A stretch of 64,000 nucleotides of DNA from Minisyncoccota bacterium (GCA_041653495.1 JBAZFF010000001.1:4987-68986); one strand, 5' to 3'; counted from the stretch's first letter, positions 985-14,310 are shown. Numbers and translations: made by a program. Notes: generated from the sequence alone by a model not told the origin.

Positions 985-998
985 TATATGTCGCACAA
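985..998 (+). repeat. 14-nt half-site TATATGTCGCACAA, identical to the left arm of the palindromic core at 14277-14290
   Basis: Exact 14/14 match to 14277-14290. It lies immediately downstream of the Xer gene terminator and is followed by TATTAAGGCACAAAACA, a degenerate direct repeat of GCACAA. Confidence 0.6.
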
Positions 999-1027
999 TA
1001 TTAAGGCACAAAACATCTGAATAATAA

Positions 1028-1060
1028 AAAGACTCTAGACAATAATGCCTAGAGTCAAAC
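1028..1060 (-). terminator. Hairpin GACTCTAG-N10-CTAGAGTC with a T-run on the minus strand, overlapping the stop of the 1055..2422 gene
   Basis: Perfect 8-bp inverted repeat between convergent genes; acts as a bidirectional terminator. Confidence 0.45.
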
Positions 1061-2422
1061 GGAATAATAAACGTAGTATCCTTTAGTAGAAGCTATCACC
1101 TCCTCTAGCAACTCTACCTTTTCTTTTGAAACAGCCTCCCTCAAACAAGTCCCTCCGAAGTCTAGAACCTTCCAGTCCAAGCCCGAAGAGAATCCGGAAA
1201 GATGTTCAAGATGATCCACCCTTTTCCCCATTTCTGCCGCGAATTTCTTCTGTTCGCCCTCCGTGTTGAATTTCCGGCAGGACAGGTTCTCTGGCTCAAT
1301 ATAACATTTAGCCAGCTCGGGATTATCCTTTTTTAGGAAATTTTCCAGCCACATGTCCCCGTTGGTCAGAAGATCTTCTTTGGTGATTAATCCTTTTTCA
1401 TAAAGCGGTTGGACCATATTCTTTAGATAAAGATCCAAGGCTCTAGAATAAGGATTAAAAAGGAATTCCTGAAATTCATAAGCCCGCAGGAGTAGGAAGT
1501 TGAAAAGCCTGTCCGGATTGATAAAGATGAAACTGTCTTTCTGTTCTGAGAATCTTATGTCTTGCCAGATATCCATGATTAAAGGATTCTCGACACACAG
1601 ATCTCTTATCTTCCCGGGACGGAGCATTCCTACAGAACGACAGTCTAAAGCGGTATAGGCAATCTTGTCTTCAATATCCAGAAATTTACCCAGTACCCCT
1701 TCATTCATCACCACCTTCTGAGCCTCTTTTACATTAAAGCCTAATCTTTTCCATTTTCTATCGAGGCCGTAATGTCTTATAGACCAAGTAAAATTTGCTT
1801 CTTCGTCCAGATTTACAGGATCCACCCTCTTTACCGAATCCCCACCTACCGGCGTAGCCAAGTCATGGCAGCCGAAGGCAAGAATCACGGGAGCCCTTTT
1901 TGAGATAGTAAAACCATTTCTAGCCATAACTACGTCGGCCAGAATGGCTACCAGTAAGGAATGTATCCACCTCGTATGATGGAACTGAGGAGTGGTATAA
2001 ACAATGCTTACATTTTTCTCCCATCCTTCCGGCCAGGGCGGAACCAGATATCCCAATTGTGAAATCTGACCCAACCTATGGAAGGCGGCATTGCAACACA
2101 AGTCGTTGTAAATCCCTTTCTCGTCGATATCTACATAAAAGTCCGTCGAACTGAAAGGAAAGGTTATCCTCTCAAAGCCGATGGAATCTCCGAAGGAATC
2201 AACCACGTTGATGTGCTTGTCCCGCGGAATCACATAGACTTCCGGATGTAAGGGATTATAAAGCTCACTGAGCCCGACTTGCTTTCCTTCTGCAGCGCTC
2301 AATTGAGAGCTCTCTAATGCCTTTTGCCATCTATCTCCGAAATCATTCAAGAATCCGGGATGATGGCCGAAGCTTGGCGGAGCTGGCGGTAACCAGAAGT
2401 TTTTCTCTTCTTTTATGTCCAT
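1055..2422 (-). CDS. HD-domain dNTP triphosphohydrolase-like protein (dGTPase family)
   Basis: TRWIHSLLVAILAD resembles the RLTHSLEVAQIGR helix of dGTPases; AFGCHDLATPVGGD resembles the HDIGHPPFGH HD motif. 455 aa. Confidence 0.55.
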   Translation of the reverse strand: MDIKEEKNFWLPPAPPSFGHHPGFLNDFGDRWQKALESSQLSAAEGKQVGLSELYNPLHPEVYVIPRDKHINVVDSFGDSIGFERITFPFSSTDFYVDIDEKGIYNDLCCNAAFHRLGQISQLGYLVPPWPEGWEKNVSIVYTTPQFHHTRWIHSLLVAILADVVMARNGFTISKRAPVILAFGCHDLATPVGGDSVKRVDPVNLDEEANFTWSIRHYGLDRKWKRLGFNVKEAQKVVMNEGVLGKFLDIEDKIAYTALDCRSVGMLRPGKIRDLCVENPLIMDIWQDIRFSEQKDSFIFINPDRLFNFLLLRAYEFQEFLFNPYSRALDLYLKNMVQPLYEKGLITKEDLLTNGDMWLENFLKKDNPELAKCYIEPENLSCRKFNTEGEQKKFAAEMGKRVDHLEHLSGFSSGLDWKVLDFGGTCLREAVSKEKVELLEEVIASTKGYYVYYSV

Positions 2423-3008
2423 CTTCCCTCCTTCTTAAACTTTTTTAAAATAGCTTTGCGAATCTTATAATATAACATTTTTCCTAAAAAAATCAATGTC
2501 AAAGAAAAAAGGGTGAAATAATCACCCTGAAAATAGAATAAGAATGGGGAGAGTCTCGGTCATCCCCTTCCCTGAAGAGCGTCCCTTGGTTCGGAGCGCA
2601 TACATCAACTTGGGAGTTGCAGATAACCACAAAATAGATTTAATCTCATGTCCGCAAGAATGGGTACACGACGGCCCTCATAAATGCTAATAAACATGAA
2701 TCTCTCTCAAAGACTCTCCCCGGAAAAAATTAAAAAGAACGAGAAAGAAGGAAGAGCCGGGTTGTTTTATTGCCTGTATCAAACAATGGGCGTCATCGGC
2801 AATCTGACCATGCCAGGACTCTTCCTCCTCCGAATCCAGAAAAGCCTAAAAACATCGGCACCCTCTCAGTTAATTAGACATCTCCAGATCCTGAAACCTC
2901 TTTGTTTTTAATTGAGTATAAAGACCTCCTTTTAATAGACGTTTCCATTTTAAGAAAACGGAGTGCTTTCCCTTAGTCTTATTCAGATTATCGGATTTGT
3001 CAATTCAA

Positions 3009-12329: not shown

Positions 12330-12332
12330 ATT

Positions 12333-14057
12333 TTATTTAAAAATCTCACGATATACTTTCAAAATAACTTCGGGTATAGCACAAAGCGTGACTCGACTGC
12401 GCACATCCATAAACTGCTTCTCGTGCGGATCATCGCCCAAAGAAAACACATAGACATTAAAATGGCCCTTGATTTTCTTTATTGCTTTTTTGAAATCATC
12501 GATAGCTTCTTCATAAAATACGATACCGAGATATTTATCGCTATTCTTGAAAATCTTAAAATCGCTCTCGTCCTGAATTAACTCAAAAGCACTCTCTTTA
12601 ATACAGAGCATCTCAGTCGATTCATTAACCAGCTTGCGCTTATTGCGGTCCGTCGGTTCGGCTTCTACAAAATCGCAGGTGTAATACTTTAAGTTTCCTC
12701 CCAAGCCCTTAACCTTTTCTCCTTTCGTGCCCTTATATCCTTCAATGGCTTTATTCAATCGCGGATAACAAATATCTGAAGCAATCTTTAATCCACTACC
12801 ATTATTATCTTCATTGTTTGTACACAGGATGAATCGTCTCTTTCCACCATCTTCTTTATTTAATTCAAGTAATGCATGTCCAGTAGTCCCTGAGCCCGCA
12901 AAAAAATCCAATATAGTTATATCGTTGGGCTTATTCGTTATCTGAATAAGATATTTAATTAAATTTACAGGCTTCGAATAATTAAAATCTATTCCCATTT
13001 CGCTCAACAAGTCAGCGCCACGTCTATTTATAAATTCATCAAGGAAATTTCTTGGTCTTTTTCCTTCTTCTTCTCTATCGCTAAGATAAGTTTTTGTATA
13101 AATATTCCATACAGATTTTTTTCCTTTATCGTCTAAAAGAGGTGAATTTTTTGCTTTCTTAAAAACAACCCGATCATTTTTAAAGTTTTCCAGAAATGTC
13201 TTTTCGGTCCATCGATAAACCTTTCCTTTCGGTGGTCGCGCCTTAGAGCCATCAGGACATATGATAAAATAGTTCTGATTCGGCCGAACATCCAAAGCGG
13301 CCTGATATAAAGATATCTCTCTATATTTTCCTCTCTTGTCTTCTCTATTAAAAAGCTTTACCCAGTCGTCGGTAACAATGTCTTTGAACTTACCTAATTG
13401 TTGGAGGTCTTTTGTATAGCACAAGAGATAATCAACTGATGGAGAGAATTGGGTTCCTTTATTACTGGCCGTTTTAGCTACCCTGGATATAACTTCCACA
13501 AGATTAAGCTCGCCAAATATCTCGTCACACATCATCTTGAGCTGCGCTAATTCATCATTACCAATACTTATAAACATAACACCGTCTGGCTTAAGAAGAT
13601 TTCTTGCAAGCTTTAACCTTTTTTCCATGAAATTAAGCCATTTACTGTGACGAAACGGATCTTCTTTGTCGACTCTTTTATCATTATAAATAAAATCATC
13701 ATTCCCAGTGTTGTACGGAGGATCGATGTAAATAAAATCAACCGCTTCATAATTGGTAAAATTTAAAACTGCAAGTGAATGGTAATTATCTCCCTCAATT
13801 AATAAATTTACGGGTTTATTTTGGTCATCATTTATTTCTTTACTTTTAGCCTCTTTTAAAACTGGGAATGGTCTACCCACCATTTCATTAGGGAACATTT
13901 CATTGGGAGTACGAGCATCAGGATTGATAAGAATATCGATCTTTTCTTCTGGGAGATCGCGATGCCAAACAAGCCCGTATTTTGTTTCCTTAATACGGCG
14001 CAACTCTTTAATGAGTTCCTCTTTGGACCAATTGTCGTAATTAATTTTTCTTGCCAT
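12333..14057 (-). CDS. mod: Type III R-M Mod subunit (beta-class N6-adenine DNA methyltransferase)
   Basis: IYIDPPYNTG (motif IV) precedes FFAGSGTTGHA (motif I), the beta-class order typical of Type III Mod. Confidence 0.85.
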   Translation of the reverse strand: MARKINYDNWSKEELIKELRRIKETKYGLVWHRDLPEEKIDILINPDARTPNEMFPNEMVGRPFPVLKEAKSKEINDDQNKPVNLLIEGDNYHSLAVLNFTNYEAVDFIYIDPPYNTGNDDFIYNDKRVDKEDPFRHSKWLNFMEKRLKLARNLLKPDGVMFISIGNDELAQLKMMCDEIFGELNLVEVISRVAKTASNKGTQFSPSVDYLLCYTKDLQQLGKFKDIVTDDWVKLFNREDKRGKYREISLYQAALDVRPNQNYFIICPDGSKARPPKGKVYRWTEKTFLENFKNDRVVFKKAKNSPLLDDKGKKSVWNIYTKTYLSDREEEGKRPRNFLDEFINRRGADLLSEMGIDFNYSKPVNLIKYLIQITNKPNDITILDFFAGSGTTGHALLELNKEDGGKRRFILCTNNEDNNGSGLKIASDICYPRLNKAIEGYKGTKGEKVKGLGGNLKYYTCDFVEAEPTDRNKRKLVNESTEMLCIKESAFELIQDESDFKIFKNSDKYLGIVFYEEAIDDFKKAIKKIKGHFNVYVFSLGDDPHEKQFMDVRSRVTLCAIPEVILKVYREIFK

Positions 14058-14276
14058 ATCTTTTATTATCTTTAAGATTGCTCGTCTTATCTAAAAAAGC
14101 ATTAAGGTCAGATTCTTTGATCCGCCAAACCCCAATCTTCGAATCTCTGAACTTACCGAGTTCAATCTTTATATAAATTTAACATTTCCAAGAAAGAAAA
14201 CAACCTTCTCGGGAAAGCCAATTTTGATGGCGGGAAAGTCGACCTATTTACGTTTAAATATTGAGGACTTTTCGTC

Positions 14277-14310
14277 TATATGTCGCACAAGGTAGATTGT
14301 GAGACAAATA
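14277..14310 (+). repeat. 34-bp palindromic core site TATATGTCGCACAA-GGTAGA-TTGTGAGACAAATA; candidate dif/att-type tyrosine-recombinase site
   Basis: Two 14-nt arms that are inverted repeats of each other (12/14) flank a 6-bp spacer. The left arm equals 985-998 and the right half is the array motif. Confidence 0.55.

Follow-up and report, generated by a model that had tools for sequence, protein, structure and literature searches.

What does it mean when a bacterial chromosome carries the same 14 nucleotides twice, once beside a recombinase gene and once in a palindrome 13.3 kb away? This question is raised by a stretch of 64,000 nt from a Minisyncoccota bacterium (GCA_041653495.1, JBAZFF010000001.1:4987-68986), referred to here as the window. 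It opens with xer, the gene of a XerC/XerD-like tyrosine recombinase, and contains exactly two copies of TATATGTCGCACAA, at 985-998 and 14277-14290, both on the + strand and in direct orientation. An initial annotation of this DNA had suggested that the copies could be attL (985) and attR (14277) of one circular element of 13.3 kb, integrated by Xer at a dif-like site beside the recombinase gene. Our analysis leads to another answer: the copies are probably arms of two distinct Xer sites near the replication terminus, each conserved on its own, and not the ends of one 13-kb element.

The direct repeat itself was borne out by the sequence scan. With up to two mismatches, TATATGTCGCACAA has six matches in the window against 0.19 expected, and none of 100 shuffles reached six, which rules out a chance repeat. 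A common word is ruled out as well, the near-matches other than the two exact copies being sites of a cassette array described below. The 14-mer consists of an 11-nt arm, ATGTCGCACAA, and the three flanking bases TAT. The copy at 14277 supplies the left arm of an 11-6-11 site, the imperfect palindrome TATATGTCGCACAA-GGTAGA-TTGTGAGACAAATA. The copy at 985 runs on as TATTAA-GGCACAAAACA and lies inside a 57-nt gap between the terminator of xer and that of the convergent gene. The six-base spacers GGTAGA and TATTAA have two bases in common and differ at the other four. The repeat lies far beyond chance because a recombinase-binding arm is used at many sites in this lineage; from its improbability it does not follow that the two arm copies are products of one single event.

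The xer gene is cut by the window edge, with about five N-terminal codons missing. The scores of its product against NCBIfam stay below the cut-offs for XerD (213 bits, cut-off 330), XerC (208, cut-off 335), XerA (178, cut-off 220) and XerS (102, cut-off 267), as well as for the integron integrase TIGR02249 (88-92, cut-off 265), and so place it outside these curated families. The nearest solved structure is E. coli XerD (1a0p), and XerH is matched in the PDB with just E = 5e-11. Nealsonbacteria and other Paceibacterota (Patescibacteria) encode proteins with 70-92% identity at over 100 loci. Our comparison covered the 64 kb of the window genome and about 20 kb of each relative, in all 111 non-redundant loci from species other than that of the window; labels such as L001 or L006 denote loci or contigs of these relatives.

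Across the 111 loci the arm ATGTCGCACAA recurs at three fixed classes of sites. The first is a full dif-like site, GTCG.ACAA-TGTAGG-TAAAGCGAC, found in 72 of 92 loci at 50-300 bp from xer on its upstream side, just past a TTGACA-N17-TATTAT promoter; in these relatives xer adjoins its site as in XerS/difSL, a parallel already drawn in the initial annotation. The second is the half-site AAATGTCGCACAATATTA (consensus tAAATGTCGCACAATATTA); 73 of 97 non-redundant relatives have it downstream of xer, the median distance from the stop codon being 70 nt, and directly past TATTA the information content drops to about 0 bits. The third is an inverted copy of this half-site, 0.4-1.1 kb upstream of xer (29 of 81 loci). 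In distant Patescibacteria the arm persists as part of a full site, ATGTCGTAAAA-GTTATA-TTGTGCGACAT. Since the arm recurs at fixed sites and is kept in these distant groups, the motif is best read as the Xer-binding arm of the lineage, in agreement with its first description as a Xer-type arm, and at the level of sequence the 11-nt arm is conserved across Patescibacteria. We infer that Xer binds these arms and catalyses the insertions. The flank TAT is rare and was seen on three of 103 arms, TAA being usual; two of the three are the half-sites of L082 and L001, and TAT appears typical of the subclade to which the window belongs.

The copy at 985 belongs to the second class. The half-site lies right against the stop codon of uppS, a convergent core gene, or overlaps it in L017, L131, L115, L012, L158, L037 and L026, where the gap measures 8-70 nt. 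Because it abuts a core gene in such minimal genomes, the half-site predates any insertion. Among the relatives, the distance between xer and uppS runs through all values between 8 nt and 8.3 kb, exceeds 10 kb in eleven loci, and reaches 42,667 nt in the window, where the core block uppS-oxidoreductase-groES-groEL at 43.6-58.4 kb is syntenic with that of the relatives. The closest relative, L082 (92% identity in Xer), shares the half-site and about 35 nt past the arm and then continues with a different gene. The half-site at 985 thus appears to be a long-standing chromosomal feature bordering a hypervariable zone, and not a hybrid att site made by the arrival of the block, as had first been supposed. 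This goes against the integration of a single 13.3-kb circle at several points: the same half-site follows xer in those 73 relatives, including ones with nothing inserted; L082 has the same sequence past the arm beside a different gene; and the spacers differ at four of six positions. Moreover, the empty site which such an event predicts, xer-palindrome-array, is read in no relative, whereas xer-half-site-uppS is read instead.

A second explanation takes the variable gap as its starting point. Here, the arm plus TATTA would serve as an attachment point (attI/attB-like) at which circles with L-TATTA-R sites (L and R for left and right arm) integrate successively, bringing in everything to the right of 999, both the block and the array, followed by later rearrangement. 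It would account for conservation ending exactly past TATTA, for a gap that varies from 8 nt to 42.7 kb, and for a pair of relatives with flanks 94-98% identical, L117 and L130, in which about 1.29 kb of extra DNA begins right after TGTCGCACAATAT. It also fits with two phage-like contigs that carry full L-TATTA(A/G)-TTTTACGACAT sites. It is at odds with the distal junctions, which retain no TATTA plus arm, with the lack of a second conserved arm at the half-site, and with DNA of up to 1.4 kb between xer and the half-site in some relatives. Furthermore, the gap in the window holds core-type genes for Obg, BipA, a DEAD helicase and TGT, which implies rearrangement and not element insertion alone. 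On balance, we consider successive integration at the half-site rather doubtful. That the entire 42.7 kb between half-site and uppS is mobile DNA was ruled out, the part from 24 to 43.6 kb with these genes being host-like.

In detail, one of these contigs, L191 (about 3660-3720, reverse complement), reads TAATGTCGCACAA-TGTAGG-GT-TAATGTCGCACAA-TATTAA-TTTTACGACAT and thus has two tandem L arms with TGTAGG and TATTAA spacers, and the other, L183 (about 950-990, reverse complement), reads ATGTCGCACAA-TATTAG-TTTTACGACGT. Both complete sites are intergenic and lie near the end of the stored contig. No Xer homologue is encoded in the stored parts of the two contigs, which may be phages of Patescibacteria exploiting the host Xer in the manner of IMEX (integrative mobile elements exploiting Xer). 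A scan of viral contigs with GGTAGATTGTGAGACA gave 12 matches, all of which look coding or due to chance.

The position of the locus on the chromosome was addressed with 37 relatives that have at least 6 kb on either side of xer. GC skew averages +0.086 upstream of xer and -0.118 on the downstream side, with a switch of sign in 34 of the 37, and the fraction of long open reading frames (ORFs) on the + strand falls from 0.89 to 0.18. As skew and gene strand both flip convergently at xer, we take this locus to be the replication terminus. The window itself shows negative skew and - strand genes across all 64 kb to the right of xer. The class upstream of xer is the best candidate for the chromosomal dif and would form one module with xer, like difSL and xerS; in the window genome it would read TGTCGCACAA-TGTAGG-TAAAGCGACA behind a TTGACA/TATTAT promoter. 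The full palindrome at 14277 is unlikely to be dif, the conserved candidate being upstream of xer.

In 29 of 81 relatives the xer/dif module is enclosed by inverted copies of arm plus TATTA, and this is exactly where the skew switches. One could imagine the half-sites as boundary elements bound by Xer or another protein, such as autoregulatory operators or a polar pair of fork barriers flanking dif, and not as recombination sites, so that their likeness to the head of the array would reflect a shared binding protein alone. The conservation of only one arm and the fixed orientation of the module across relatives would suit such a role. We regard it as highly improbable: roughly two thirds of the relatives lack the left copy, variable DNA starts exactly at the right half-site, and fork arrest is without experimental or comparative support. 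A mobile xer module with these inverted copies as terminal repeats was ruled out too, because its chromosomal context is fixed and its orientation to the skew is constant; the context comprises the mur/ftsW/murG cluster, an S11 peptidase and the 3′ end of a gltX-like gene upstream, and uppS-groESL downstream.

What lies between the two copies is a mosaic. The xer-proximal gene for a 455-aa protein is host-like in composition, and a homologue with 53% identity adjoins uppS in L147. The label "dGTPase-like HD", given to it at first, was not confirmed, as the protein has no Pfam or PADLOC match at the thresholds used. The remaining gene content named in the initial annotation, namely the NTP-hydrolase/SET/rarA operon, the Type III mod-res genes and the PHP-SMC-like gene, was confirmed by Pfam and PADLOC. 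The operon has a tetranucleotide z of +4.4, and its GC content at third codon positions (GC3) is mixed (0.33-0.54): the first CYTH gene, HD and RarA have host-like values of 0.49-0.54 and MazG and SET low values of 0.33-0.36. Orthologues of the first CYTH protein are encoded downstream of xer in L193 (75% amino acid identity) and L006 (69%), and further homologues in this position are RarA in L014 (82%) and HD in L020 (59%). The defence island is strongly foreign (GC 0.367, GC3 0.31-0.38, tetranucleotide z +12.2 versus core) and has no homologue near xer in any relative.

The same arrangement recurs elsewhere. In L193 and L006 (86% and 79% identity in Xer), xer is followed by the half-site, a block of 6-7 kb with a CYTH orthologue and HD, as well as MazG-like genes in L193, and a full site whose L arm is direct and whose spacer differs; this site leads into an array in L006, and the L193 contig ends at it. 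Given the mixed composition and the shared layout and genes, we conclude that the block is not one element: it is partly an ancestral neighbourhood to which a defence island was added.

Measured against an IMEX, the stretch 985-14310 has identical arms and differing central regions instead of a shared arm plus central region, and the empty form in relatives (xer-half-site-uppS) provides no empty target with a precise junction. The absence of a recombinase gene of its own is IMEX-like; the three values of z (+0.1, +4.4, +12.2) and the shared CYTH position do not describe one coherent foreign unit. A single integrated circle would explain why exact direct L arms bracket a block devoid of a recombinase gene, part of which is clearly foreign defence cargo, and why both copies have the rare TAT flank; IMEX such as the gonococcal genetic island (GGI) or TLC also share one dif arm and diverge in the other (PMC5357621). 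The host-like genes at the xer-proximal end, the CYTH orthologues at the same place in L193 and L006 with identities that track Xer divergence, and the age of the half-site make this explanation improbable in our view.

To the right of the copy at 14277, the full site was confirmed as the head of a cassette array. Spacer and right arm, GGTAGA-TTGTGAGACA..., recur at 14849, 16124, 17383 and 20508, and five such copies were counted against 0 expected. From 14277 to 23456 the order is that of a tandem array, a full site followed by units that each retain one arm and the central region at their end. The array sites are all in direct orientation, and the sequences at the left-arm position are mutually unrelated, apart from those of sites 2 and 6, which are almost identical. 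Each array site follows a - strand terminator and the best promoters place their -35 box at the left-arm position, so that each unit of 0.5-3 kb is a self-contained promoter-gene-terminator cassette. The cargo comprises a 117-aa protein, an AIR-synthase-like protein, Fic, an AbiE-type toxin-antitoxin pair and an S11 peptidase. An array of the same pattern with a different spacer is present in L006, where the head site TGTCGCACAA-GATGCG-TAGTGCGACGT is followed by copies of spacer and right arm only. The coordinates of all features are given in Table 1.

Table 1. Features of the xer locus, the block, the array and the adjoining core gene in the 64-kb window.
Feature	Coordinates	Strand	Details
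xer, XerC/XerD-like tyrosine recombinase gene	2..943	+	Pfam Phage_integrase 3e-36 plus SAM-like N-domain
Intrinsic terminator of xer	949..973	+	terminator scan; hairpin kept in L082, L001, L193
Half-site flanking xer	982..1004	+	arm ATGTCGCACAA 988-998, 14-mer 985-998, TATTAA 999-1004; conserved consensus in relatives
Stretch past half-site, GGCACAAAACATCTGAATAATAAAAA	1005..1030	+	common only to closest relative L082; includes T-tail of terminator 1056-1031 (-)
455-aa gene with HD-like motif	1055..2422	-	GC3 0.48, tetranucleotide z +0.1, host-like
Gene-free stretch (586 bp) between HD-like gene and hydrolase operon	2423..3008	.	no ORF of at least 80 aa
Seven-gene operon: CYTH, NUDIX, HD, CYTH, MazG, SET, MgsA/RarA	3009..6971	-	Pfam
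Defence island	7118..14057	-	Pfam, PADLOC
Ppl/TrlF-like 991-aa SMC_N ATPase	7118-10093	-	
Type III res	10098-12329	-	PADLOC REase_III 7e-21; Pfam ResIII
Type III mod	12333-14057	-	PADLOC MTase_III 2e-81; Pfam N6_N4_Mtase
Full Xer-type head site	14277..14310	+	arm ATGTCGCACAA 14280-14290, spacer GGTAGA 14291-14296, right arm TTGTGAGACAA 14297-14307
Array site 2, spacer and right arm only, GGTAGATCGTGAGACAAATAAAAA	14849..14872	+	TTGACA -35 box in left-arm position
Array site 3, spacer and right arm only	16124..16147	+	abutted by - strand terminator 16170-16148
Array site 4, spacer and right arm only	17383..17406	+	terminator 17433-17402, tail reaching into arm
Array site 5, spacer and right arm only	20508..20531	+	terminator 20555-20532
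Array site 6, GGTAGA and diverged right arm TTATGCGTCAT	22443..22459	+	promoter 22436-22408
Degenerate terminal array site, GACAGA-TTGTGAGAAAA	23440..23456	+	
uppS, first gene of conserved core block (uppS, oxidoreductase, groES, groEL, onward)	43607..44308	-	Pfam Prenyltransf 8e-84

Taken as two separate sites, the copies can be placed in the following scheme. The copy at 985 would be the half-site closing the xer module on its downstream side, with an ancestral form abutting the stop codon of the convergent uppS, and the DNA between the two would be a hypervariable terminus zone, grown to 42.7 kb in this genome. The block would combine the host-like gene and the nucleotide-hydrolase/RarA operon, partly ancestral at this place, with a later-acquired island of Ppl/TrlF-like and Type III genes. 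The copy at 14277 would be the left arm of a complete 11-6-11 site at which cassettes enter: a circular cassette with the same spacer and right arm and a poor left arm would recombine with the head site, regenerate it in full and leave a site of spacer and right arm only behind the cassette. This is the way in which IMEX pile up at dif, and such serial integration at the regenerated full site is the source from which we would derive the array grammar.

Tyrosine recombinases usually need homology in the central region for strand exchange. As the two spacers differ, Xer should not recombine the two sites with each other. Several points weigh against our preferred reading. Integration of the CTX type swaps one strand pair and tolerates different central regions, which makes the spacer mismatch no absolute bar. 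Since this relaxes the rule, the spacer argument is not decisive alone, and the weight is carried by the comparative evidence of an old half-site and a mosaic block. The rare TAT flank on both copies could also mean common descent of the arms. With relatives that are all of other species, a recent insertion or excision of exactly 985-14277 might have taken place. The half-site has one conserved arm, and to such a site the reading assigns no function. The upstream dif-like site is known from relatives alone, its expected place in the window genome being to the left of base 1. Finally, binding of the arms by Xer enters the argument as a step that we infer.

Further observations concern the sites themselves. 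The full site of L193, TGACGCACAA-CTGTAG-TTGTGCGTCA at 16969-17002, is a perfect palindrome in which both arms carry the same change from the usual arm, and this symmetrical, compensatory change suggests selection for two-fold symmetry. In L136 and L140 (+83 to +130 after xer) and in L085, a full palindrome, AAATGTCGCACAA-TCACA-TTGTGCAACATTT, adjoins the usual half-site a few bases before uppS. The left inverted arm of L029 (about 9250-9265), L021 and L145 lies inside the 3′ coding end of the gltX-like gene and encodes ...NKILCDIS.... In the distant L047-L079 (Levyibacteria, Curtissbacteria and similar groups, Xer about 48% identical), the ATGTCGTAAAA-GTTATA-TTGTGCGACAT site is 2-5 kb from xer and the skew switches at xer in 5 of 19; a tight linkage of xer, dif and terminus may be specific to Paceibacterota. 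Two relatives, L018 (17187-19491) and L114 (12047-14351), share a 2.3-kb segment with 96% nucleotide identity and have xer genes less than 88% identical; the position of L-arm sites near the ends of the segment suggests that a unit delimited by Xer sites was transferred recently.

Within the array region of the window, 20942-21832 (+ strand) encodes an S11 D-Ala-D-Ala carboxypeptidase; the S11 peptidase of relatives is 29-37% identical and encoded about 9 kb upstream of xer beside the mur/ftsW cluster. Two Logan contigs from an independent assembly (SRR18595300), L081 and L162, match the window to 100%, and their ends overlap by exactly 30 nt, corresponding to window 16122-16151 on array site 3. 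The overlap may represent a branch of the assembly graph, with alternative junctions in the population.

Concerning the block, the Mod and Res genes share one operon (10098-14057), as in Type III restriction-modification (R-M) systems. Homologues of the 991-aa ATPase with 60-83% identity occur across many phyla. In L195 (10001-13731) and L196 (4575-8305) they are located after Type I R-M genes and before a PD-(D/E)XK nuclease gene, and the window gene follows Type III R-M without a nuclease partner. No remnant of a PD-(D/E)XK partner gene was found at the left edge of the R-M island, and no Xer sites surround the Ppl/TrlF-like homologues in the two other genomes. A search for Xer-site remnants in 2423-3008, 6972-7117 and 14058-14276 gave a single right-arm match with two mismatches, at 7021, within chance expectation. 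Pfam detected no integrase or recombinase domain in the ORFs from 1055 to 14057. The stretch 2423-3008 has no Rfam family at the gathering score, and in the whole window Rfam recognizes one tRNA and otherwise nothing.

Some RNA-like and promoter-like elements were noticed near xer and uppS. Immediately before the uppS stop codon, the window (43520-43606) and L111, L103, L149, L084, L007 and L015 contain a conserved element with two hairpins, ...AAGAGGAAAAACTAAAAGAC..GTCTTTTGT-hairpin-TTTTT, a candidate for a small RNA or a shared terminator module. In L020 (9490-9830), L019, L005, L132, L002 and L008, the interval from the left inverted half-site to the xer promoter contains a GC-rich unit of about 250 nt that is strongly self-complementary and has a TTGACA/TATAAT promoter and terminators of its own. 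This unit looks like a non-coding RNA gene, and no Rfam family matched the RNA-like region that precedes xer in relatives; in L029, L039, L089 and L097 its slot is filled by small ORFs (77-131 aa). A motif CTTCGGGCTAAATTTTGATTATTTT in L018, L019, L020, L006, L114 and L015 is situated immediately before the start codons of - strand genes on the downstream side of xer; it looks like a shared promoter or 5′-UTR (untranslated region) element and sometimes directly abuts an inverted Xer arm. The recurrent motif CTTCGGGCTAAATTTT of the relatives was ruled out as a Xer site and is a 5′-UTR/promoter element of - strand genes.

Beyond the two copies, the terminus zone of these bacteria ranges from a few bases to tens of kilobases between relatives and holds defence islands and cassette arrays bounded by Xer sites. 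As a tentative generalization, which we hold to be possible and somewhat short of likely, Nealsonbacteria and related Paceibacterota may maintain a conserved gene-capture platform at the terminus, run by their housekeeping Xer, with a xer-dif module that half-sites of arm plus TATTA close off, one or more full head sites with private spacers, serial insertion of both small promoter-gene-terminator cassettes and larger islands, and phages that exploit it. If this is true, the platform would be a chromosomal counterpart to the integron working on double-stranded dif-type sites, spacer identity would be an addressing code by which sites avoid recombination with dif and with one another, and phage-like elements with matching L-TATTAA-R sites would use the same machinery. 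This gives a testable picture of how genomes with few mobile-element genes gain and store accessory and defence genes, and the natural spacer variants are a test set for how one recombinase avoids scrambling neighbouring sites. No description of Xer/dif or of this motif in bacteria of the Candidate Phyla Radiation (CPR) was found in the literature searched; a dif site and a Xer arm are predicted for this phylum, and a Xer-based capture zone at the terminus appears to be undescribed so far in the ultra-small Patescibacteria (CPR).

Among known systems, the closest in grammar are the IMEX arrays at dif, such as those of CTX-phi, TLC-phi and VGJ-phi in Vibrio cholerae and the gonococcal genetic island. 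Having no integrase of their own, IMEX use the host Xer and share one arm, often together with the central region, with the host site, diverging from it in the other arm; since the full site is restored on integration, tandem elements accumulate at the terminus (PMC5357621). The array in the window follows exactly this grammar, but its units are small promoter-gene-terminator cassettes of 0.5-3 kb and not phages or large islands. It is headed not by the conserved dif-like site but by another full site, 14 kb distant, that has a different spacer, and the 13.3-kb block stands outside the array grammar, on the left-arm side of the head. Moreover, one XerC/D-like protein was seen in the 64 kb of the window and the 20 kb or so of each relative, not a pair of XerC and XerD.

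In the xerS/difSL system of streptococci and lactococci, the recombinase gene beside a dif-type site forms one terminus module, and the site is used asymmetrically with one arm stronger (PMC5357621). The relatives resemble it, as well as XerH/difH and archaeal XerA, in their dif-like site close upstream of xer. By sequence, Xer here is none of these, the layout is 11-6-11 in contrast to the 11-bp central region of difSL, and the flanking half-sites of arm plus TATTA and the downstream arrays are without a described counterpart in the three systems. XerL/dif of Legionella, a single-recombinase system, was recognized via LME-1, a mobile element that carries a dif mimic and has its integration site close to the terminus (PMC9765430). 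The phylum is a different one, and one element is involved, in contrast to the conserved half-site and cassette arrays described here.

Integrons share with our locus a recombinase gene next to the insertion point and an array of small cassettes that runs in one direction, with a recombination site at the end of each. Differences are that Xer is not IntI, that the sites are dif-like by sequence and not attC, that the platform is located at the replication terminus, and that the cassettes in the window carry promoter-like and terminator-like signals, whereas integron cassettes are promoterless. On Acinetobacter plasmids, pdif modules are flanked by oppositely oriented XerC/D and XerD/C sites. 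In contrast, the array sites reported here are all direct repeats, chromosomal, and conserved in only one arm. The likeness is in small modules, often with toxin-antitoxin or resistance genes, that are bounded by Xer-type sites (PMC7399989).

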